This document shows positions 6,423 to 16,629 of a DNA stretch of 16,716 bases, piece after piece. A program made the translations under genes and the position numbers. How positions within the stretch are numbered: the first letter of the stretch is position 1; each line of letters starts with the position of its first letter. The notes under the pieces were generated by a model. It was not told the origin of the DNA. It made no database searches and saw only the letters and a program-made list of their open reading frames with translations. Origin of the DNA: Oligoflexus sp. (lineage in GTDB: Bacteria; Bdellovibrionota_B; Oligoflexia; Oligoflexales; Oligoflexaceae); the NCBI GenBank assembly GCA_041736305.1, contig JBGSTX010000295.1, positions 1-16,716 of the forward strand, in the 5' to 3' direction.

Positions 6423-7193
6423 ATGAAAAGAGTGGTACCAAATGCTGGACCAATCAAGTTGGAGGGTTTCAACAACCTCACCAAGGCCTTGAGCTTCAAT
6501 CTCTATGATTTCTGCATCGCGCGCAACGACGAGGAACGCGCAGCATACGTCAAATATATTCACGAACGTTTCAGTGCGAAACGAATCACAGAAATCCTCA
6601 AGGGCATCTGCGATATCATCGAAGCACAGGTCCTCGCGGTCTCCGACCAGGATTACGATCCCTGGGGCGCATCCTCGCTAGTGCTTATGAGCGATATCAA
6701 GGGCAGTGGCGTCGGCGATGTTAAGATGCACCTCGATAAGAGCCATATTTGTGCGCATACCTATCCTGATTTTCGGGTCAATGGCCAGGTTTGCTCCTTC
6801 CGCATCGACATCGACATCGCTACTTGCGGTGAGATCTCGCCTCTGCGGGCCTTGAACTTCATGTTCGAAGCCTTTGAATCAGACGTCGTCGTCGTCGACT
6901 ACGTGGTGCGCGGTTATACCCGCGACGAAGACGGACGTCGGGTCTATATGGACCACGAGCTCCGCAGCATTCAAGATTTCGTTAACGAGAATATTCTTGA
7001 CGACTATCACTGCATAGATATCGCCCTGCAGTCAGACAATATCTGGCAGACAAAGATGCTCAGGACTCGTATGGACGAGGCCTCCTACTTCATCGATAAG
7101 GAAAAAGTCGATCTGAAGAGCGAGGAAAGCCGCCGCTTTCTCGATATGGTCAAGAGCGAAATGCGCGGCGTAGTCTATATGTGGCCTGATTGA
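6423..7193 (+). CDS. speD: S-adenosylmethionine decarboxylase proenzyme (E. coli-type, class 1A)
   Basis: LEGFNNLTKALSF, QDYDPWGAS, HLDK|SHICAHTYP pyruvoyl cleavage site, TCGEISPLRALN, DYVVRGYTRD match E. coli SpeD. ATG 6423 follows GGAGG at 6411. Confidence 0.95.
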   Translation: MKRVVPNAGPIKLEGFNNLTKALSFNLYDFCIARNDEERAAYVKYIHERFSAKRITEILKGICDIIEAQVLAVSDQDYDPWGASSLVLMSDIKGSGVGDVKMHLDKSHICAHTYPDFRVNGQVCSFRIDIDIATCGEISPLRALNFMFEAFESDVVVVDYVVRGYTRDEDGRRVYMDHELRSIQDFVNENILDDYHCIDIALQSDNIWQTKMLRTRMDEASYFIDKEKVDLKSEESRRFLDMVKSEMRGVVYMWPD

Positions 7194-10057
7194 ATTTGTT
7201 TGACGAAGGAGGCGATAGCCTCCGGTTCCTTACTGAGACGTCCCCAAGGCTCTGCCGCGCTGCCTCTGCCTATCTCGGGTAGGTGCGTACAGAGGAAGAG
7301 TTTGAGCTCAGGGCAGAGAGCCCTGAGTTTTCGTAAAAACCCTGGACCATCTTCCTCCCCCTCCTCGAACAAGCCGTCACTTATCAGCGCGCGACAGTCA
7401 GCTAAGAGATCGGGATTCTCGTCCCATGCTTGCAGCATAGCTTTTGGCTCTGGGAAACAAGCTAGACTGAGGTGAGACTCTGCAGCCGAGGCTTGCCAGA
7501 TATCCGTAAAAAGCGGGTCGTCTTCGACGAGGATGAGCTGCACTCGCCGGGCTAAAAAGCTTTGGCATAAGTCGATCAGCGCGGTTTTTTGCAAGGGCTT
7601 GGGGAAAAAGACGTCAGCACCGACCTTTAAGGCTGCCTCGCGAATGGCAGAGCTACTGCGATGTGAGTGCAAGGCAATGCGGGCATGAGCTTGCAGCTTG
7701 CGAAACTGGGGAATCCAACTGAGTCCATTGCTCGAGCCGAGCTGATAGTCAATAATAATAAGATCAAATCGTTCGGTGCGGGCCCTTTCGAGCGCGGCTT
7801 CGGGATGCTCATGGCTTTCAAGCGAGACGCCGAATGAGGCCTCCTCCAAACTCTCGACCAATTCTTTGCCATACAGCAGATCCAGAGGATCATCGTCGAC
7901 CCAAAGCAAGGACAGTTTCCGCTTGTAGGAAGAGGGTAGCGGCGCGGACGTCGGCGCTTGCGGGCTGATGGTACTCCAGATCGCGGCGAGTCTATCCAGA
8001 AGCTCAGGAGGCTGGATGTCTTTCCGATAGGAACTCGGGAGAGTCACGATGAAGCTGGTTCCCTTCTCGCTATCAGACTGACAAGCTATTTGTCCACCAT
8101 GCGCGAGGACAAACTTCTTGACGATAGCGAGGCCGAGTCCTGTGCCACCTTCGGTGTAGAAGGCTTCGAAAATGCGTTTGCGCTTTTCTTCGCCGATGAA
8201 ACTGCCTGAGTTATGGATGACAATCTCTATCCAAGTCCGTCCGCCTTCGCTGCGATCTTTAGTCGAAATCGAGATGCGCCCTCCGTCGGGAGTAGCCTGA
8301 ACCGCATTATTCAAAATGTTGTTGAAAATGCGGATCAGCTTGTAGCTATCCGCTTCTAGCATGAGTCGGTGCTCCAGCTCACAGGTCAAAGCGATCGACT
8401 TCTTGCTGGGAAGAAGCAGGCGCAAACTCTCCTCCAGCGCGGTCAACGGACTCATAGCTTCTGTCAGAGTCTCGCCAGTGGCCCCCATCTCAAGTATGTC
8501 TGTAATCATTTCATTAACGGTATGGGTCATGCGCCGGACGTGCGGCAGATACTGCTTAGCCAGTTCTTTGAGTTTCTCCGGATCTTCAGTAGTCGCAAGT
8601 AGACTGAGCACGCCCTCGAGAGTCCCGAAAGGACGACGGATATCGTGGGCGAGCATCTGTACTGCTGATCCAAGAGCGCTGACTGTCGCTTCGCGCAGCT
8701 TTTTCGACTCCTGTCGAGGACGACTCTCGCCTACTGAATTGAGAATGAGCGAGCCAAGGGCAGGTAAATCGCTCAGTAGCATGCGATTGCTAAAGGCTAG
8801 CAGATTGCAGATGCCGAGAGGGAGAAACTGCGGATTGTGAACGAGAGCGTGCAGCCAGTCGCGAAGACGACGGTCGCGCTGGATAGTGCTAGGGTCGAGG
8901 AGAAGCTTTTCAAGGAAAGGTCGTTGCTCGACGCCACCAATAGCTTGCCGGTAAAGGAGACGTAAACCCAGCTCAGCGGCAGAGAGACTGGCCTCGCGGC
9001 TGTAGTTAGGCAGCGCAAAAATCCAACCGTCTACACCGTCGCCTTCAGCTTGAAAGTGCAGCTCAAGCTGAAAATGATGAGTAGCGAAAGCCGCTAGGTC
9101 CTCAAGAAAAACTTGCGAACAGACCCCCGGATCGTAAGCGAACGTCCAGGACTTCCGCTGCAAGTGAGGATCTGACGGCAAAGGATGGATGTCGGCATCA
9201 ACTGCGAAACTATGCTCGCTGTAGAGTTCGCCAAGTCGTCGAAGATTCCAGGCATTGCGGCGCTGAGCAAATCCCTGCAGAGCCGTCCGAAGGGTCTCAC
9301 TGCCCTGGAAGCGGTTCCGCAGCCAGACAGCAAGCTGCATCTCAGGCCGCAGGTTTAGGTTCATGACTCCGCTCAGTGAGCTGGTCTGAGGTGCCCTGCT
9401 GAGAGTACTCGGAAAAATTGCAAGGTAAGCAGCCGAGTCATGACTCTGGTCTAGTGGAAGCTGCTCAAGGGTCTGCACCACGACTTCCTCGTAGATCCGA
9501 GAGTTTCGGGGCTCATCGGGGTGGAGCTTGAGCCGAAGGGAGCTGGGCGACTGGCTCGACACAAACCAAGGGCCGCTGCTGATCCCACTAGGCCGATAGA
9601 TGCTGCACTCAGGTAGGGCCAGACGTTCGAGGAGATCCGGCACTAGACCGTGCAAGAGGATTTCAAAGCGATAGCGGGAATGGAGCTTGAAACTTTTTTC
9701 AGAGCCTAAGCCCTGAAAGCGCAGAAGCCTTCCGAGTTGCGATGCGCTGCTCGCTCGCCTTGCCACCCGCAAAAGGCAGGATATAACGTCAGCTGCACAT
9801 ATCTCATCACCTTGATGGAAGCGTCGACCTTTTTTAATCTGTAGTCTGTAGCTGCCATCTTCTTTACTTATGGAACATGATTCGAGCAGAGATCGATCGG
9901 TCTGCCCACCCTGGCGGAGCTCGACCAAGCGAATAGCGCAGTTGGTCCAATAAAACTCTTCTATCCAACTGTCGGCGGCAGGAAGGCTTTCTGGGTCGAG
10001 ATGAGGGAGACGAGGAAGATAGAGGTGAAGAATGTGATCTCGGGTTTCAAGGAGCAT
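7175..10057 (-). CDS. Hybrid sensor histidine kinase: N-terminal family-5 solute-binding-like domain, HisKA, HATPase, two receiver domains
   Basis: H-box LAHDIRRPF, N-box RIFNNILNNAVQA, F-box RIFEAFYT, G2 GGTGLGLAI. REC1 VDDDP/IIIDYQ/FPKP and REC2 VEDDP/LISD. N-terminal LLESCSISKEDGSYRLQIKKGRRFHQGDEICAADV resembles the SBP_bac_5 signature. Confidence 0.88.
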   Translation of the reverse strand: MLLETRDHILHLYLPRLPHLDPESLPAADSWIEEFYWTNCAIRLVELRQGGQTDRSLLESCSISKEDGSYRLQIKKGRRFHQGDEICAADVISCLLRVARRASSASQLGRLLRFQGLGSEKSFKLHSRYRFEILLHGLVPDLLERLALPECSIYRPSGISSGPWFVSSQSPSSLRLKLHPDEPRNSRIYEEVVVQTLEQLPLDQSHDSAAYLAIFPSTLSRAPQTSSLSGVMNLNLRPEMQLAVWLRNRFQGSETLRTALQGFAQRRNAWNLRRLGELYSEHSFAVDADIHPLPSDPHLQRKSWTFAYDPGVCSQVFLEDLAAFATHHFQLELHFQAEGDGVDGWIFALPNYSREASLSAAELGLRLLYRQAIGGVEQRPFLEKLLLDPSTIQRDRRLRDWLHALVHNPQFLPLGICNLLAFSNRMLLSDLPALGSLILNSVGESRPRQESKKLREATVSALGSAVQMLAHDIRRPFGTLEGVLSLLATTEDPEKLKELAKQYLPHVRRMTHTVNEMITDILEMGATGETLTEAMSPLTALEESLRLLLPSKKSIALTCELEHRLMLEADSYKLIRIFNNILNNAVQATPDGGRISISTKDRSEGGRTWIEIVIHNSGSFIGEEKRKRIFEAFYTEGGTGLGLAIVKKFVLAHGGQIACQSDSEKGTSFIVTLPSSYRKDIQPPELLDRLAAIWSTISPQAPTSAPLPSSYKRKLSLLWVDDDPLDLLYGKELVESLEEASFGVSLESHEHPEAALERARTERFDLIIIDYQLGSSNGLSWIPQFRKLQAHARIALHSHRSSSAIREAALKVGADVFFPKPLQKTALIDLCQSFLARRVQLILVEDDPLFTDIWQASAAESHLSLACFPEPKAMLQAWDENPDLLADCRALISDGLFEEGEEDGPGFLRKLRALCPELKLFLCTHLPEIGRGSAAEPWGRLSKEPEAIASFVKQIQSGHI

Positions 10058-10361
10058 TGTTCAGTCCGTTCTCACGATTCCCAAGGAGCGGTTCTATCAC
10101 GAGAGTTTGGAGAGCTTCGAGCTTACTCAGGTGCTTATCGAAGGCAGCCTGTTTGAGAGGATCTATCGAGTCTTCTCCGCCTTTGAGACCCTTCTGCGCG
10201 AGGTAGCGGAGCGTGCGGATAGCACCTATGTAATCGTGATAGAGACGCCGACGAGCTTCCGCACCGGCAGGCCCGGCTGCTAAATCGATCGAGGCTTCAA
10301 TTCGCCCGTCGATCGCTTCGTTGAAGCGCCAAGTTCCGAAAGGTGGACGAGTCGTTTCCAT
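10047..10361 (-). CDS. Hypothetical protein, 104 aa, possible stand-alone DHp/histidine phosphotransfer protein
   Basis: AGGAGGG RBS; TAATG coupling to the upstream gene and 11-nt overlap with the kinase start; helical with H-box-like RRRLYHDYIGAIRTL. Confidence 0.75.
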   Translation of the reverse strand: METTRPPFGTWRFNEAIDGRIEASIDLAAGPAGAEARRRLYHDYIGAIRTLRYLAQKGLKGGEDSIDPLKQAAFDKHLSKLEALQTLVIEPLLGNRENGLNNAP

Positions 10362-11881
10362 TAGGCACCCTCCTGCGGTATAGAGTCTCCGCTGACATTG
10401 ACCATCGCTTTTAACTCAGTCGCACTCACCAAATCTTTCTTGATGAGATCCTGCAGCTTCGTTGAAAGGGTCGAGCGCGGGATGAGGAGAAGGCGTGCGA
10501 GCTGCCTGAGGGTCATGCGGCCTTCTTTTGCATAGCAGCGTCGAATAAGACTTAATAGGAGCTGCATGCTCAGTCGCTCGAAGGGAATTTGCGCTTCTCT
10601 ATCCCAGTCGAGAATTATCTGCTCTTTGCTAGAGACGGAGGCAGAGTTTGAAACTTTTTCTTTTTCTTCTGCTCCTGCTTCTGTAGCAGCTTCTAAGGCA
10701 GTCATCTGGGACCAGATGTAAGCGGGGATGGCCGAAGGACTCATAAGGCCCCCGTAAGCGTGCTCGGTCATGGCGCGAAGACAGTTTCTAAGTTCACGAA
10801 TATTGCCGTGGCGCCAATCGTATTGCTTTAATACCTGAACTGTCGCTGCCGCAATGCTGTAAGGCCCTCCCCTCATAGTTTGACAGAAGAGCGGTACCAG
10901 CTCGTCGAGCTCATCCTTCCGCGTATGGAGCGGTGGCAGGTGAATGACGGCTTCGCAGAGCCGCTGCCAGAGATCTCGGCGAAATAAGCCCTTTTCCACC
11001 AGACTTTCTAGGTTTTCGTTGGTAGCTGAGAGCACGCGAACGCTAATTTTCTTTGGCATGGAAGCGCCGACCGGCCGCAGCTCTTGATTTTCGAGAACAC
11101 GCAGCAAGGCCACCTGCGTTGCAGCACTGAGAGTGGCCACTTCATCGAGAAAGACCCAGCCACCGTCAGCCTGTTCAAAAAGTCCAATCTTGCTCTGCTG
11201 AGCGCCCGTAAACGCTCCCTTAACGTGACCGAAAAGTTCAGATTCGATAAGTCCTGCGGGAAAAGTTCCGCAGTGTATGCGGATGAAAGGGAGTCGCCCA
11301 GCAAAATGCGCCGCAAACATATCGGCAACGACCTCTTTACCCGTACCTGTTTCTCCAAAGATATGTATTGAACTCAGGGCTGAGGATATGAGGCGCGGAA
11401 TGCGTTCGCTGAGTTCACGCGCTGTCCGACCCGCGACATGAGCTAGTCCTGCTGCGGTCGCTAGGGAAGCGGCATTGCCGTGCTTGCGCTTTTCCTGCTC
11501 TTGCCGCCTGAGATATTCTTGCTGCGCGGCGAAGATCCGGGCCCGCATTCCCTGCTCGTCCTGACCTTTGAAGAGGAAATCGTCGGCTCCGCGAGCAATG
11601 CAGCTGCGAACCGTTTGCGTATCGTGCAGGTCAGAGCACATGACGATCATTGTGCCGGGAAGGCGACTTCTCAACTGCTTGGCCAAACCGCGGCCGTCCT
11701 CTTCACCCTCAGCCAGAAAGATATCCAAGATCACGACGGCGGGATCTGGAGCGCGGTCTATAGCTTGCCAAAGTTCGGCGGGACTCGTGAACGAACGGAC
11801 GGCTTCACCGAGGATCTCTCGGACCTGAGCCAGGAAAAGCTCATCATCATCGAGGTGATAAATAGGGCTAAGGGGGTGCAT
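10361..11881 (-). CDS. Sigma54-dependent response regulator (NtrC/AtoC-family bEBP: REC-AAA+-HTH)
   Basis: REC (LDDD, VILD, FLFK), Walker A GETGTGKE, ESELFGHVKGAFTGA, Walker B FLDEV, SATN, FRRDLWQRL, GNIRELRN, C-terminal HTH LARLLLIPRSTLSTKL. Confidence 0.95.
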   Translation of the reverse strand: MHPLSPIYHLDDDELFLAQVREILGEAVRSFTSPAELWQAIDRAPDPAVVILDIFLAEGEEDGRGLAKQLRSRLPGTMIVMCSDLHDTQTVRSCIARGADDFLFKGQDEQGMRARIFAAQQEYLRRQEQEKRKHGNAASLATAAGLAHVAGRTARELSERIPRLISSALSSIHIFGETGTGKEVVADMFAAHFAGRLPFIRIHCGTFPAGLIESELFGHVKGAFTGAQQSKIGLFEQADGGWVFLDEVATLSAATQVALLRVLENQELRPVGASMPKKISVRVLSATNENLESLVEKGLFRRDLWQRLCEAVIHLPPLHTRKDELDELVPLFCQTMRGGPYSIAAATVQVLKQYDWRHGNIRELRNCLRAMTEHAYGGLMSPSAIPAYIWSQMTALEAATEAGAEEKEKVSNSASVSSKEQIILDWDREAQIPFERLSMQLLLSLIRRCYAKEGRMTLRQLARLLLIPRSTLSTKLQDLIKKDLVSATELKAMVNVSGDSIPQEGA

Positions 11882-12027
11882 GCGATCCCTTCGGAAAGCG
11901 TTTTCTATACCCCAGAAATGGCCGAAATCGGGACAAGTTGCAAGTCGTAGGTCTTGCTTATGGCCCAGATTTGTCCTCCGCGGCCGGACTATAAATCATA
12001 AGTACATGTAATAATTGGAATTAAAAT

Positions 12028-12045
12028 TTGGCACGAAAGGTGGAA
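12028..12045 (+). promoter_or_regulatory. Sigma54 (-24/-12)-like promoter
   Basis: TTGGCACGAAAGGTGGAA: perfect -24 TGGCACG, with GG instead of GC at -12; AT-rich upstream; about 30 nt before the ATG at 12077; divergent from a bEBP gene. Confidence 0.65.
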
Positions 12046-12076
12046 TAGGGGCTTTACCTAACTAAGGAGTTCCCAG

Positions 12077-12256
12077 ATGAGAAAGTTAAATTCTATCCGC
12101 CTCTACCTCTTCAAATTGCACCAGATCAGACAAATCGCTGCCGCTAAAGCCCGGAAGAAAAGTTTCTACTACCGTGCAGATCGGGAGAAGTTTGAATCGG
12201 TTCAAGGGGCAATCCGCGACCGGCTAGCTTGGGAGAACGGCCGCCATGCTAGCTGA
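12077..12256 (+). CDS. Small basic protein, 59 aa (MRKLNSIRLYLFKLHQIRQIAAAKARKKSFYYRADREKFESVQGAIRDRLAWENGRHAS)
   Basis: Translated by hand; absent from the ORF track. TAAGGAG RBS at 12063-12069, ATG 12077, TGA 12254-12256; flanked by a promoter and a terminator. Confidence 0.72.
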   Translation: MRKLNSIRLYLFKLHQIRQIAAAKARKKSFYYRADREKFESVQGAIRDRLAWENGRHAS

Positions 12257-12278
12257 AACAAAAAGCTCAAAAGGCAAG

Positions 12279-12315
12279 AACGAGGCTCAGCTCAAAAGGC
12301 TGGCCTCGTTTTTTT
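12279..12315 (+). terminator. Rho-independent terminator (possibly bidirectional)
   Basis: AACGAGGC(T)CAGC-TCAAAAG-GCTGGCCTCGTT followed by a T run; lies between the 59-aa ORF and the convergent lipoprotein gene. Confidence 0.8.
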
Positions 12316-13339
12316 ATGGGATCTGGTTTTGTTGGTTATTATCGGTGTCAGAATCCGGAAGAGGCGGTCCAAGTGGGTCCGTAATCGGTTCAGACCCGAT
12401 ATTCTCGAGCCGGAGGCTATAGGCCGGGCTGAAGGTTTGCTTATCCTGATCACTGAACTGATAGAAAATTTCCGCTGGCGTATTGCTGCTGATAGGAATT
12501 TGAATCTGCCCGTCCAGACTCATCCAGTTATTGCTGAAGCTTAATTCTTCCTCACTCAAAGCTAGCCGCACCCAACGACACATGGCATTTCCGCTCATCG
12601 AAAAATTCAACGATTTAATATTTGGATCATCGGTGCGAAAGCTCGTAGGAATTTCCAGGCGACCATCAACGATCAAGCGATCGTAAAGACGAAAATCTCT
12701 ATTGTCGTCACTTGTGCCCACATTCCAGATGCCTTTAGTTTGTACATAGCCTTTTAGGGAAATACGAACGGGTAGCAGGCTTTCGGATGGAGCATAAAGC
12801 CTAAAATTTCCGTCAAGATCGGTCGTAGCAGCCAAGCGGCCCACATGAACCAGCGCACCTTCTGCGGGTGAATCGCCCTCTGCGAAAGACTTCGGAGCCA
12901 TGACCTGACCGCTGATGACAACCGGGGTCTGGAGTCTGATGATCCCCAAATCCATGTTACCGACTTCTACTGCTTTTAGCTTATCGTAGACGGCTGATTC
13001 CCCAGGGAAGCCCGCGTTGGTAAAATAGAGACGAAGAGGCTGACCGAGACCACCGTAGCGAACCTTGAGCTCGTCCTTACGTTCACTGGACCAGCTGAAT
13101 GAAAAACGCCCGTCTGCATCGGTGATCTGTTCAGGAGTAGTCTCCTGCTCAACAAATACGCCTATCCCTGCAGCGGCTTGCCCGAAACTGTCTTGTACCT
13201 GTCCGCTCACGCTGAGGGGAACATCTTGGGATTTGACAGCGGCCTTAGGATTTTTCAGGCAGGCTCCCCCTTGCAGAGCGAGGATTAGGCCCGAAGCCTG
13301 GAACATCCTGCTAAAAAAAATCAGTGTTTGACTCCGCAT
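12314..13339 (-). CDS. Putative lipoprotein with two carboxypeptidase-regulatory-like beta-sandwich domains
   Basis: GAGGAG RBS; signal with lipobox-like LQGGAC; repeats VSGQVQD..ITDADGRFSF and ISGQV..PAEGALV..TTDLDGNFRL..KGY. Confidence 0.75.
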   Translation of the reverse strand: MRSQTLIFFSRMFQASGLILALQGGACLKNPKAAVKSQDVPLSVSGQVQDSFGQAAAGIGVFVEQETTPEQITDADGRFSFSWSSERKDELKVRYGGLGQPLRLYFTNAGFPGESAVYDKLKAVEVGNMDLGIIRLQTPVVISGQVMAPKSFAEGDSPAEGALVHVGRLAATTDLDGNFRLYAPSESLLPVRISLKGYVQTKGIWNVGTSDDNRDFRLYDRLIVDGRLEIPTSFRTDDPNIKSLNFSMSGNAMCRWVRLALSEEELSFSNNWMSLDGQIQIPISSNTPAEIFYQFSDQDKQTFSPAYSLRLENIGSEPITDPLGPPLPDSDTDNNQQNQIP

Positions 13340-13396
13340 GACCGGGGCTCCTCAAGAGAATAGACGCGTTTTTGCGAAAGCTTCAATCTCAATTAC

Positions 13397-13413
13397 TGCA
13401 AGGATCTGACCAA
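13397..13413 (-). promoter_or_regulatory. Sigma54 promoter for the lipoprotein gene
   Basis: Minus strand TTGGTCAGATCCTTGCA = GG-N10-GC with TTGCA at -12, about 58 nt upstream of ATG 13339. Confidence 0.65.
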
Positions 13414-13451
13414 GCGGCAGAGCCGTGGCGCCAGGAAAATTTTGATGAGAT

Positions 13452-13480
13452 TTGATAGGATTAGCCGCTGCTGCTAAACT
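13452..13480 (+). promoter_or_regulatory. Sigma70-type promoter for the polysaccharide export operon
   Basis: TTGATA-17 nt-TAAACT with extended -10 TGn. Confidence 0.55.
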
Positions 13481-13563
13481 TAGAAGCAAAGCATCATGAC
13501 CAATATCTAGACGCCTCGCTGCGATGCATGGGGAACGGTCGGGTAACAGGAAGGAGCATAGAT

Positions 13564-14400
13564 ATGCTGGGCTTGAGCCTCTTCTCTCGCCGTACCAGAG
13601 CTCGGACTACGGGTCTGATCCTGATTTCGGCAATTCTCCTAGCGTCATGCAACAAGTCGGAAGATGAGACCACCTGCAATCTCGACGCTAACGGTCTAAA
13701 AAGCGAAGGCTGGAACAGTAGCGAACTCAAAGATCTGGAATTATCATTTATTTTCCTCAAGGGACCTTCAGGCGTCTCTGCCGACATTGGCGACGTGCTA
13801 CAACTCAATGGGATATCGGCCTTATTCTTTGTGCAGGGTTCTGCCATCGAAGGTAATAAGGACCAACTGCCGATTCTCAAGGACCAGGGCCACCTCATCG
13901 GCAATGGTGGCTATCGCTATCAAGATCTGACTAAAGCCGAACACCCCGTGCTCGAGCTCAGAACCACAGACGGGCTCATCACGCCGTACGTGACCGGCAA
14001 CATGTTTCTCTTTCATGCGCCGCTGAAATCCTTTAACGAGCAGTCCGCGGCTCTTTACCGGGCCAATGGCCTCGGCAAGTACGTTGGACCCATTTTCGAC
14101 GACACCACGCCGAGCGAAACGTTTCGCTATGACGAGCAGTGTTGGGTCGACAATCTGACGCCAGCCGTATGTGCACAGCAGTACTTCGATGAGCTCAAAC
14201 GTATAGGGAAGGGCATCGTGGCTTTCAACGACACGCAGCCGAAATCCCTCGAAATGCTCAACGAGTTGCTTCCCCAATTGAAGACCTTTGGGTTCACCTT
14301 TGTTCGCATCGACCAAATTCCGAGCATCCGCAGTGCCCTGACTCGTGCAGGCGCCCTCGTCGATGCAACGGGATCCAGTTCTTGCGATGATTACGATTGA
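13564..14400 (+). CDS. Polysaccharide deacetylase (CE4/NodB)-fold lipoprotein, catalytic motifs degenerate
   Basis: GGAAGGAG RBS before ATG 13564; lipobox LLASC; NodB scaffold ALFFVQG, GHLIGN, KGIVAFND, LPQLKTFGFTFVRI. Confidence 0.75.
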   Translation: MLGLSLFSRRTRARTTGLILISAILLASCNKSEDETTCNLDANGLKSEGWNSSELKDLELSFIFLKGPSGVSADIGDVLQLNGISALFFVQGSAIEGNKDQLPILKDQGHLIGNGGYRYQDLTKAEHPVLELRTTDGLITPYVTGNMFLFHAPLKSFNEQSAALYRANGLGKYVGPIFDDTTPSETFRYDEQCWVDNLTPAVCAQQYFDELKRIGKGIVAFNDTQPKSLEMLNELLPQLKTFGFTFVRIDQIPSIRSALTRAGALVDATGSSSCDDYD

Positions 14401-14410
14401 GGAGGCTGCC

Positions 14411-16006
14411 TTGTCGCTTCACTTAGGGTTCCTTCGCTCTCTCCGAGCCACAAGCTACGGAGCCTGCTTTATCATCGGGCTCTGGCAAGGAGCCGTGCTC
14501 GAGGCGAAAGAACTTCCGCCGGCGAATGGTATCGCCTGCGATGCCGCAAGCTGGGCGCTCTATATTGCCAAGGCCCAGAGTTTGGCTAGCGAAACCGAAA
14601 GCATGGGCCGCACGATTATCACTTGCCCAAGCGGAGACTACCGTCAGGCCGGTCTTTACTGGTTGGCTTTTTACCTGCATATGACACAGCAAAACGCTGC
14701 TTTCAGTCAGACTTTCAAGCTTCTGCCAGCACCTACAGGCTCTGACAAGAATATGGTGCGCTATCGGGCATGGAATGGCGACACAGAGACTTTGAAAAGC
14801 AAAGTTCAGAATAGCGAAAAAGGCTATTTCGATGACCCCGAGATGACATTGGCCCTAGCGAGAGCTTCAATGCGAGCTGGGCTTTATAAAGATGGTCTTC
14901 AAAACTTTGAAATATACTTAAAACAAAGAGAGAGCGACGAAGCTGTCGAGGCTGAGCGACTCTTTGCCTATCTCTGGGCTGGAGACAAACAGGCGGCGCG
15001 CCTGCAAATCGGTTCCATGCGACGCTATGCCGTTAGCCCTTATCTGCGCCAGTCGCTTGATCGAGCCGAAGCCCTGCTAGGGCCAGAGGACGTCATCGCT
15101 TCGAGCGAATGGCTCGGCAGCAAGGGTACCTGGTTGCGAATCAGCGGCAACGAATATAGCGACAACCGAGGTTTTGAACGCCGAGGAATCGGACTTGCAT
15201 ACAATGGACCCGTGGAAATCGGCGTCGATGCCTTTGAATCGAGGCACCCCCTCGACCCCGAAACTGAAAATCAAGCCTCCCTAAACCTTGGCAAGACTTT
15301 GAGCGGCAGCTCTTGGAAAGCAGGAGCACGCGTCGGCTACTTTACAGTCGGCCCTCAAAATTTCACGGGCCGCCTCCAAGCCGAATGGTTGCCTTTGGAT
15401 TCTCTACTCGTCGGAGTTGCCGCCCAACGCGAAGCAATAGCGGTCCTTGATCGGCCACTGGTCGGTGCGAGGCGCGGGGTCATGCGTGACACAGGAGAGT
15501 TTCTCTTAGGTGGTTTTCGCCGCAGAATAAGCTTCAAGGCAGCTTTCAACCGAGACGATGAAAAGGCATTTTTCGAGCTTTACGAAGCTGAGCTGCGCAT
15601 AGGTGCCTTGTTAAATCGGGAGACTGATCTGGGCTTTGGATTTTTCATCCCCATTTCCTATCAGCATCGCCCGCTTCCCAGCCAAGATTTAGTGACTTTT
15701 CCGAAAGAGGCCCGGACTGGCCTCGGCTTGCGCTTGGCGCTTGGTGATGGCGCTACCCTGCGGGTTGGCACGGAAGCTCTGATCGAAACCGTGTTCCGCA
15801 GCTACTTCATCGAGCCTGACGATTTCGAACAGCTGCTGTCAGCGCGTGTTCGCAGCGATATTCGTTACTATACGAGCTCGTCCTTTTGCTACTTTCTCAA
15901 CGCTGAACTGAAGCTCACCGAGCGCAATCCATTCGAAAATGAGAACGAGAGAAAGACCGCATTCACCATCGGTATTGCTCTCCGCGATACAGAGCAACAG
16001 AAATAG
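14411..16006 (+). CDS. Secreted TPR-containing outer-membrane beta-barrel protein (probable polysaccharide export porin)
   Basis: GAGGAGG RBS then in-frame TTG at 14411; signal peptide ending VLEA; helical TPR-like N-half (LALARASMRAGLYKDGLQNFEIYL); C-half of alternating-hydrophobic beta strands; directly upstream of an OPX gene. Confidence 0.6.
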   Translation: MSLHLGFLRSLRATSYGACFIIGLWQGAVLEAKELPPANGIACDAASWALYIAKAQSLASETESMGRTIITCPSGDYRQAGLYWLAFYLHMTQQNAAFSQTFKLLPAPTGSDKNMVRYRAWNGDTETLKSKVQNSEKGYFDDPEMTLALARASMRAGLYKDGLQNFEIYLKQRESDEAVEAERLFAYLWAGDKQAARLQIGSMRRYAVSPYLRQSLDRAEALLGPEDVIASSEWLGSKGTWLRISGNEYSDNRGFERRGIGLAYNGPVEIGVDAFESRHPLDPETENQASLNLGKTLSGSSWKAGARVGYFTVGPQNFTGRLQAEWLPLDSLLVGVAAQREAIAVLDRPLVGARRGVMRDTGEFLLGGFRRRISFKAAFNRDDEKAFFELYEAELRIGALLNRETDLGFGFFIPISYQHRPLPSQDLVTFPKEARTGLGLRLALGDGATLRVGTEALIETVFRSYFIEPDDFEQLLSARVRSDIRYYTSSSFCYFLNAELKLTERNPFENENERKTAFTIGIALRDTEQQK

Positions 16007-16026
16007 GTGAGGAGTAGAAAAAAGGC

Positions 16027-16629
16027 ATGAGCTGCAAATCGACCAGTCTCGTTCTGCTGCTGAGCTCAGCGATCACTTCCTGCAGCTACAAGATTCCAGC
16101 CGAAGACATCGCCCAGCTCCAAGCGGGAAAGACCTTCAACCGGCAGGGTAGCTTCCTCATCGGCGCAGGCGATGAGATCGACATTTTCGTCTTCGGCGAG
16201 GAAAAGCTCAGCGGACGTTTCACCGTCTCGCCAACAGGCGTGCTGGCCTTTCCCTTGCTAGCCCCTATTGCTGTCACTGGGATGACGACCGCGCAGCTGA
16301 CCAAGCGGCTCGAAACAGGGCTCGACTCCATAGTCAAAAATCCGCGCGTAGTCTGTTCACTCCTCGGCATCCGTAGCTTTCAGGTCTACTTTGGAGGAGA
16401 AGTGAAGCGCGTCGGTGCCGTGCCCCTGACGAGCGAGACGACGTTCCTCCAGGCTCTGACGCTGGCGGGAGGCATTACTGAATTTGCTAGCGGACGCATC
16501 GTCCTGGTCCGACAACTCGGCAACAATAAGGTCCGGCGCTTCGCGATTCGCTACGATGATATTCTGAGCGGCGAACGCTATGTCGACACTATTTCACTCG
16601 AAAGCGGCGATGTGATATTTGCTGAGTAA
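16027..16629 (+). CDS. wza: Polysaccharide export protein OPX/Wza family lipoprotein (short, Poly_export + one SLBB)
   Basis: GAGGAG RBS; lipobox AITSC; IGAGDEIDIFVFGEEKLSGRFTVSPTG..FPL..GMT Poly_export motif; GEVKRVG..QALTLAGG SLBB; ends LESGDVIFAE. Confidence 0.9.
   Translation: MSCKSTSLVLLLSSAITSCSYKIPAEDIAQLQAGKTFNRQGSFLIGAGDEIDIFVFGEEKLSGRFTVSPTGVLAFPLLAPIAVTGMTTAQLTKRLETGLDSIVKNPRVVCSLLGIRSFQVYFGGEVKRVGAVPLTSETTFLQALTLAGGITEFASGRIVLVRQLGNNKVRRFAIRYDDILSGERYVDTISLESGDVIFAE

Follow-up and report, generated by a model that had tools for sequence, protein, structure and literature searches.

The 16,716-nucleotide (nt) stretch of DNA considered here, called the window as a whole, is contig JBGSTX010000295.1 of Oligoflexus sp. 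(GenBank assembly GCA_041736305.1). It carries a small gene on the forward strand, preceded by a promoter of the sigma-54 type and followed by an intrinsic terminator. This gene diverges from an operon coding for an enhancer-binding response regulator (EBP, its left neighbour), a protein of 104 amino acids (aa) and a hybrid histidine kinase. Its coding sequence, at 12077-12256 (+) with the stop codon included, is an open reading frame (ORF) of 59 aa from ATG to TGA, recognized from the ORF list, from syntenic homologues, from a codon-position bias and from a helix model. A first-pass annotation, made from the letters alone, had placed a 59-aa ORF with a near-ideal ribosome-binding site from 12063. 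That ORF is indeed present, the earlier start taking in the ribosome-binding site, and a Shine-Dalgarno sequence AAGGAG (12064-12069, +) lies 7 nt 5' of the ATG. The composition described at the time is also what we count in the window copy, with 15 Lys or Arg against 5 Asp or Glu and 7 aromatic residues, to which we add 2 His, no Pro and no Cys. Mean hydropathy is -0.82 and there is no apparent hydrophobic segment, as read from the composition without a transmembrane predictor. Just one ORF, of 39 aa, overlaps the small ORF in antisense. The exact protein is present in a public protein collection (sources NCBI and Logan).

Used as the sole query against 61 related genomes, the window protein finds one weak relative, in genome G009 (E 2.8e-4, 34% identity), at the same location and divergent from the orthologue of the window EBP; a word-index search of 5.8 billion clusters yields nothing beyond the window protein itself. 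The family was located via the synteny of the EBP, the orthologues of which were searched in 22 genomes of the bacterial family and the DNA upstream of them read. Seven other genomes of the same bacterial family carry at this place an ATG ORF of 43-56 aa with a Shine-Dalgarno sequence: G009, G008, G006, G007 and G002, which belong to the same genus, together with G014 and G021. With the window included, family proteins range from 43 to 59 aa, and a GGAG/GAGG-type site stands 5' of the ATG in all eight orthologues. G018 has a 62-aa ORF at the syntenic place that the family profile does not recognize. No small ORF was found upstream of the EBP orthologue of G019, and G015 is left outside the count because its contig stops 233 nt upstream of the EBP.

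A profile built from the eight sequences and run against 1.84 billion representative proteins, unfiltered for length, returns nine matches at E ≤0.001. All have 43-57 aa, so that neither fusions nor longer proteins turn up at this threshold. Five are sequences already known from synteny and four are new, among them P0009 (E 2.6e-4 with this profile), which shares 60% identity with the window protein; the G021 form held in the protein collection has 48 aa and starts two codons later. With a 12-row profile, 95 genomes of the order give eight strong matches (E ≤5.6e-15), all in one bacterial family; two weak matches, in G057 (E 7.6e-4) and G005 (E 5.5e-3), are not counted as members. Member records belong to Oligoflexus tunisiensis (G006), Pseudobacteriovorax antillogorgiicola (G014) and Pseudobacteriovorax sp. 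(G021), and every named one is annotated 'hypothetical protein'. As cases in point, WP_176736917.1 of O. tunisiensis (47 aa, 19% identity to the window protein in the family alignment) and WP_159455279.1 of P. antillogorgiicola (54 aa, 15% identity) belong to the same family at syntenic places and bear neither a function nor a family label. Scanning a genome contig collection with P0009, or a metagenome contig collection with an alignment of the window protein and P0009, gave no match, and a search of a protein atlas gave no usable one. The sole genome-contig match of another sequence, P0004, on a Planctomycetota contig, lies off-frame within a 394-aa ORF and was rejected. A literature search in a limited library found no paper on the small-protein family or the locus. 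The family is unnamed and lineage-restricted: of the 95 genomes searched within the order, those that carry it all fall in one bacterial family.

That the ORF is translated is suggested by the way its copies differ. Nei-Gojobori counts were made on the codon alignment, with differences given here for codon positions 1/2/3. G006 and G007 differ by 8/9/30 (proportions of nonsynonymous and synonymous differences, pN 0.23 and pS 0.73; ratio of the corresponding rates, dN/dS, about 0.10), G007 and G002 by 10/4/20 (dN/dS about 0.08), and G006 and G002 by 10/9/26. G008 differs from these three by 19-21/17-20/34, and the window from G009 by 31/30/44 (pN 0.53, pS 0.96). The synonymous rate is computable for two pairs, G006/G007 and G007/G002; most of the distant pairs are saturated, and the ratios of 0.47-0.87 that some of them give deserve little weight. 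Between the window and G009 the differences at conserved residues are synonymous: a Ser-Phe-Tyr-Tyr run survives three changes at third positions, and so does His-Ala-Ser-stop at the C terminus, with the serine written AGC in one and TCC in the other. Differences in length between orthologues amount to whole codons. A contig from another sequencing run, X2, is 97.5% identical to the window over 11700-12500; its ORF shows four changes (R2K, G55S and two synonymous) with no insertion or deletion, while promoter motif, ribosome-binding site and inverted repeat are unchanged. With so few changes this comparison adds little, and runs X4, X5 and X7 offer short contigs that cover part of the stretch only. 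Loss of the frame and a match to a known family were among the outcomes named beforehand as able to overturn the proposal; the frame is kept at the homologous loci, with dN/dS about 0.1 in the closer pairs, and no known family matches. Frame, start codon, ribosome-binding site and promoter motif repeat at seven syntenic loci and go with a third-position bias, which is more than chance would give. Judged from these comparisons, 12077-12256 is almost certainly a real protein-coding gene, and the codon counts indicate that its amino-acid sequence is under purifying selection.

Promoters of the sigma-54 class have a -24/-12 architecture, with TTGCW as the -12 consensus and its GC placed 5 nt after the TGGCAC hexamer. 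Such a promoter is recognizable in front of the small gene at 12029-12046 (+), where a -24 element TGGCAC (12029-12034) is followed by a 5-nt spacer and a -12 box GTGGAAT (12040-12046), with G at 12043 where the canonical form has C. We infer a transcription start at about 12054-12056. In the family the motif reads TGGCA(C/T)-N5-nTG(T/G/A)AAT and begins 46-88 nt upstream of the ATG in 8/8 loci; at all eight the spacing is fixed, and TGGCA, the -12 TG and the A next to it do not vary. At the same place G018 has TGGTAC-N5-TTGTAATA. When the genome is scanned for TGGCA[CT]-N5-nTGn, the canonical C is present in 40/69 sites outside long ORFs against 52/224 inside them, which argues that this genome does use canonical sigma-54 promoters. 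It contains one rpoN, detected as a single Sigma54_DBD match (220.7 bits). Natural variation of sigma-54 promoters at -11 and -12 is described as tied to rpoN paralogues (Francke et al., PMC3162934); a single rpoN is seen in the window genome. Three -24/-12-like sites of G000 also lack the -12 C, namely C330:3081(+) with TTGGAAC, C170:2403(+) with TTGTAGG and C276:3693(-) with TTGTAAC. They lie 43-71 nt 5' of plausible gene starts, two of these lipoprotein-like, and a -12 box without C may not be unique to the small gene.

A sigma-70 consensus scan of the forward strand over 11600-12700 found no site, and a pair picked out by eye, TTGGAA (12016-12021) and TGGAAT (12041-12046), 19 nt apart, is unconserved in the orthologues and was rejected. 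The small gene had earlier been credited with a promoter of its own. A conserved promoter motif is there; it is not a housekeeping promoter but one of the sigma-54 type, tied to the neighbouring EBP. To judge from the motif and its setting, transcription of the small gene is likely to depend on sigma-54 and on this EBP.

A candidate upstream activating sequence (UAS) for this EBP, put forward from its conservation across loci, is the inverted repeat GGCC-N7-GGAC at 11920-11934. It precedes the -24 element by 109 nt and, on the other side, the EBP start codon by 38 nt. In the form G[TG]CC-N7-GG[AC]C all 8 family loci have it, 32-47 nt ahead of the EBP ATG, and G018 has it 71 nt ahead; a narrower form of the pattern occurs once in the 5.02-Mb genome. 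G006, G007 and G002 have a second copy 67-68 nt upstream of the -24 element of the small gene. The distances between repeat and -24 element fall at 108-109, 86-88 and 67-68 nt, that is in steps of about 21 nt, or about two helical turns, a spacing that fits a putative activator site kept on one face of the helix. In the same three genomes a 196-aa multi-pass membrane ORF (L022:3081-3671, minus strand, in G007, and at the same place in G006 and G002) lies between the EBP and the small gene. By eye only, it resembles HdeD, and the second copy of the repeat has moved along with the small-gene promoter past this insertion. For the qrr1 promoter, which is EBP-dependent, mapping placed the UAS regions at -175 to -60 (PMC10162802). 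It is conservation that makes the repeat a candidate UAS, and its position close to the EBP start in all eight loci hints that the relay operon may also be autoregulated through it.

The presumed activator is encoded at 10361-11881 (-) and comprises a receiver domain (REC), an AAA+ Sigma54_activat domain and a C-terminal winged-helix-like domain; Pfam recognizes Sigma54_activat at 3.9e-51 and Response_reg at 6.3e-11. Within NCBIfam it scores highest with ntrC (247.9 bits, where the cut-off is 558.6), and the GAFTGA motif is conserved across 10 orthologues. The genome has about 15 strong EBP genes, and the Sigma54_activat score of this one is 176 bits against 231-251 bits for 12 others. NtrC-family activators usually end in a helix-turn-helix of the Fis type; none is among the 18 Pfam families listed for this EBP at E up to 0.1. 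Residues ~440-490 have weak winged-helix matches (MarR_2 at 7.6e-5, HTH_24, TrmB), all below cut-off. Orthologues of the EBP stand beside every family member, with 62-66% identity in the same genus and 44-45% otherwise (tblastn).

Behind the EBP, the conserved operon continues over 7175-10361 (-) with the same gene order across the family loci: first the 104-aa protein (10047-10361, -), which has no Pfam or NCBIfam match, then the 960-aa hybrid histidine kinase (7175-10057, -), recognized by its Pfam kinase domains. At the seven other loci tblastn recovers the EBP in 7/7, the kinase in 7/7 and the 104-aa protein in 6/7; none of the other window genes is conserved there. Because these three are kept and the right flank is not, the conserved unit consists of the small gene with the EBP/104-aa/kinase operon. 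In the 104-aa protein the residues H42-D43, A47, R49, R52 and A55-Q56-K57 are invariant. AlphaFold2 models it (predicted local distance difference test, pLDDT, 72.6) as a three-stranded sheet with a helical hairpin, the invariant His lying on the first helix, and Foldseek finds nothing like this model in the PDB at E ≤0.001. No Hpt domain turned up in the kinase, for which reason the 104-aa protein might be the phosphotransfer protein of the relay. Near the N terminus of the kinase, residues 57-181 weakly resemble solute-binding protein family 5 (8.7e-5, which is under the cut-off), and the C-terminal 131 residues (830-960) give just a faint match to a second receiver, at E 0.023.

On the other side of the small gene, an intrinsic terminator at 12276-12315 (+) consists of a GC-rich hairpin (12276-12313) with an A tract before it and a U tract after it. 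Its folding free energy is -24.8 kcal/mol (z -5.63, none of 200 shuffles being as stable) and a consensus terminator scan agrees, so that the earlier mention of an own terminator holds for the window copy. The convergent gene at 12314-13339 (-) ends at the foot of the hairpin and, with the A tract in front, this suggests a terminator that probably acts in both directions. The possibility of a small RNA in the 3' untranslated region (UTR) had also been raised. Rfam has no match in the window, and RNAalifold finds no consensus pair over the eight orthologous transcripts, the alignment being poor, which lends that idea no support. In G007, G002 and G008 (loci L022, L023 and L024) an element GCTACGCCAT(A/T)A(T/G)T is seen ~25-55 nt past the stop codon; the ORF that comes next on the same strand codes for a similar membrane protein in G007 and G008.

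The right flank (12314-16629) is made up of cell-surface genes, for a CarboxypepD_reg-domain protein, a polysaccharide deacetylase, a Wza-like export protein and a protein of 553 aa that matches no Pfam family significantly. Related genomes keep none of these genes next to the small gene. In all, besides the relay and these polysaccharide genes, the window holds SecD/F, Mur-ligase-like, LptD-like and AdoMet-decarboxylase-like genes.

As to the protein itself, AlphaFold2, given the 12-row alignment, predicts a single continuous helix over residues 2-58 with a mean pLDDT of 84.4, in line with the earlier guess that it is helical. Across the family no member has Pro, each has 5-8 aromatic residues and all are net-positive. 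Residues F30, Y32 and E35 are conserved at 90% or more in the 12-member alignment, and most members have an R-x-R pair near the C terminus. The family is predicted to form one long amphipathic helix, and the stripe of conserved aromatic and acidic residues along it suggests an interface with another protein, or else a coiled coil. Strong positive charge, from which nucleic-acid binding had first been proposed, is not a family trait. It belongs to the window subclade (+10 in the window copy, +11 each in P0009 and G009), three of the 12 members, whereas the other nine carry +2 to +5 and have His/Gln-rich segments where the window has its basic stretch; what is conserved is aromatic and acidic. 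The earlier remark that the family could not be recognized is borne out: the window protein matches no family of Pfam or NCBIfam, and the 12 members together give isolated single-member Pfam matches at E ≥0.027, nothing in PHROGs or PADLOC, and a best E of 0.24 against PDB sequences. A leaderless cationic bacteriocin was also considered and rejected, in view of the hydropathy and of the lack of an adjoining transporter or immunity pair. A complex prediction joining the EBP (10-row alignment) and the small protein (12-row alignment), run without controls, scored 0.00 against a mark of 0.32 and speaks neither for nor against an association.

Taken together, these features are probably best explained by a kinase/EBP relay that drives the small gene, from its sigma-54-type promoter, as a dedicated local output, the four genes forming one conserved module. 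The hybrid kinase would sense a signal and its phosphate would pass to the EBP, which would bind the conserved inverted repeat some 70-110 nt upstream and activate sigma-54 RNA polymerase at TGGCAC-N5-GTGGAAT. The product would be a short transcript of about 260 nt, monocistronic in the window and translated from its strong ribosome-binding site. The small protein would then bind a partner along the hydrophobic/aromatic face of its helix, most likely another protein, perhaps one of the relay's own components in a feedback loop, rather than a nucleic acid held by charge. Protein binding as its mode of action, under which such feedback would also fall, is a tentative proposal. A bolder statement, in which a phosphorelay has a helical protein of ~50 residues as its sole conserved output, made from a sigma-54 promoter that lacks the -12 C throughout the family, and this protein is a global regulator or a new kind of modulator acting in trans on an EBP relay, would be unlikely to hold in full.

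To be sure, a number of observations weigh against this picture of a dedicated output. The canonical C of the -12 box is absent in 8/8 loci, with G, T or A in its place, so that this is not a textbook sigma-54 promoter. In G008 the sole copy of the repeat sits 247 nt from the -24 element; the core GTCC-N7-GGAC is not enriched in the genome (44 copies, with roughly 76 expected as an estimate from length alone), and a genome search for pairs of repeat and -24/-12 element gave 8 where about 3.5 are expected, none of them convincing. The terminator is unconserved, weaker hairpins with a T run being candidates in G009 and G021 only and 5/8 loci having none. G007, G008 and G002 have a same-strand ORF ~40-60 nt downstream of the small gene, which may accordingly be the first gene of an operon there. 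Sequence conservation is low, with a mean column identity of 39% and 15-36% between the window protein and distant members. The predicted template-modelling score (pTM) of the AlphaFold2 helix is 0.39, and a lone helix makes a weak model.

If the small protein does bind a protein, one form this could take is that of a feedback anti-activator following the logic of PspA and PspF, where it would damp or tune the relay by binding one of its proteins, be it EBP, kinase or 104-aa protein. The small gene is strictly linked to this EBP operon alone and codes for an amphipathic helix with conserved aromatic and acidic positions, and there is a precedent in the helical PspA, which inhibits PspF in trans (PMC3791423). 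Yet the small protein has no homology to PspA or to any Pfam family, and an EBP with a receiver domain, the usual means of control, needs no inhibitor in trans; drawn by analogy, this version seems rather improbable. No better placed is the idea that a basic helix, when the relay fires, alters translation or transcription globally by binding nucleic acid or the ribosome. The charge of the window copy and its two nearest relatives would suit it, as would the R-x-R pair, and the layout resembles that of EBPs with a global post-transcriptional output, such as LuxO and SypG acting on Qrr1 (PMC10162802). It suffers from the modest charge of the nine other members and the replacement of the basic stretch, and Pfam and NCBIfam give no match to RMF, to another ribosome-associated family or to a DNA-binding one. 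Because charge is unconserved, electrostatic binding to nucleic acid is a weaker reading than the window copy alone implies, and we hold it to be doubtful.

The remaining two accounts take function away from the protein. A regulatory or dual-function RNA, with the ORF incidental or secondary, would agree with a short sigma-54-type transcript that has its own terminator and diverges from a phosphorelay EBP, an arrangement known for Qrr-type small RNAs. But the third-position bias, dN/dS about 0.1, the serine kept through AGC and TCC ahead of a common stop, and the ATG with its ribosome-binding site in 8/8 loci are all marks of a translated gene, while Rfam and the eight aligned transcripts reveal no RNA structure and neither terminator nor 3' UTR is conserved; such an RNA is very improbable. 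The same low standing goes to a leader or upstream ORF whose translation would mainly control the same-strand genes that follow. The membrane-protein ORF close downstream in G007, G008 and G002, with no terminator found between, is of the kind that such a leader would serve, as is a 265-aa ORF downstream in G009. In the window, though, a strong terminator closes off the gene, with a convergent gene on its far side, the downstream genes vary between loci, and it is the amino-acid sequence itself that is under purifying selection, which makes a leader role scarcely credible.

The relay-driven small gene, were it confirmed, would matter for several reasons. Small proteins tend to escape annotation, and for few of them is the regulatory setting defined, whereas here one would come with one kinase, one EBP, a promoter and a candidate operator. 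Oligoflexus tunisiensis is cultured, which offers a tractable entry to signalling in the Oligoflexia, a class that has been little studied. Absence of the -12 C throughout the family, despite canonical promoters elsewhere in the genome, would be a natural variant that may bear on activator dependence. Should the small protein be a minor lineage-specific factor, the interest would be local only.

The regulatory layout, an EBP with a sigma-54 target nearby, is already known; the small-protein family is unnamed and lies outside the families compared here. PspF and its target come to mind, since pspA is a divergent sigma-54 target of PspF; PspA, of Pfam family PspA_IM30, is about four times longer than the small protein of the window, which has no Pfam family match. 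The likeness lies in an EBP paired with a helical protein, PspA being a trans-inhibitor of PspF (PMC3791423), and a difference in that PspF is without the receiver domain that the window EBP has. With respect to size, MgrB, SafA, PmrD and Sda are comparable: they have tens of residues, are often induced by two-component systems and bind a kinase or a regulator. No sequence relation to them was detected in the Pfam and NCBIfam searches, in which the presence of their models was left unchecked, and the window protein looks soluble, its hydropathy being that given above. The closest parallel in logic is offered by Qrr1/LuxO, CrcZ/CbrB, GlmY/GlrR and Pxr/Nla19, where a phosphorelay ends in an NtrC-type EBP whose target, encoded close by, is a short RNA transcribed from a -24/-12 promoter. 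In these systems qrr1 adjoins luxO, crcZ adjoins cbrB, glmY adjoins glrK/R and pxr adjoins nla19. The hybrid kinase, 104-aa protein and EBP of the window, with their short divergent transcript, follow the same logic. Transcription of qrr1 is EBP-dependent, and the EBP sites lie about 60-175 nt upstream (PMC10162802). The outputs of the Qrr, CrcZ and GlmY systems are non-coding RNAs, whereas the window gene is protein-coding, without conserved RNA structure or Rfam match. If the proposed reading is true, the local target of this EBP is a tiny protein instead of a small RNA or an operon; under the bolder statement made above, the locus would supply a protein counterpart to the Qrr/CrcZ/GlmY class of EBP-driven small regulators.

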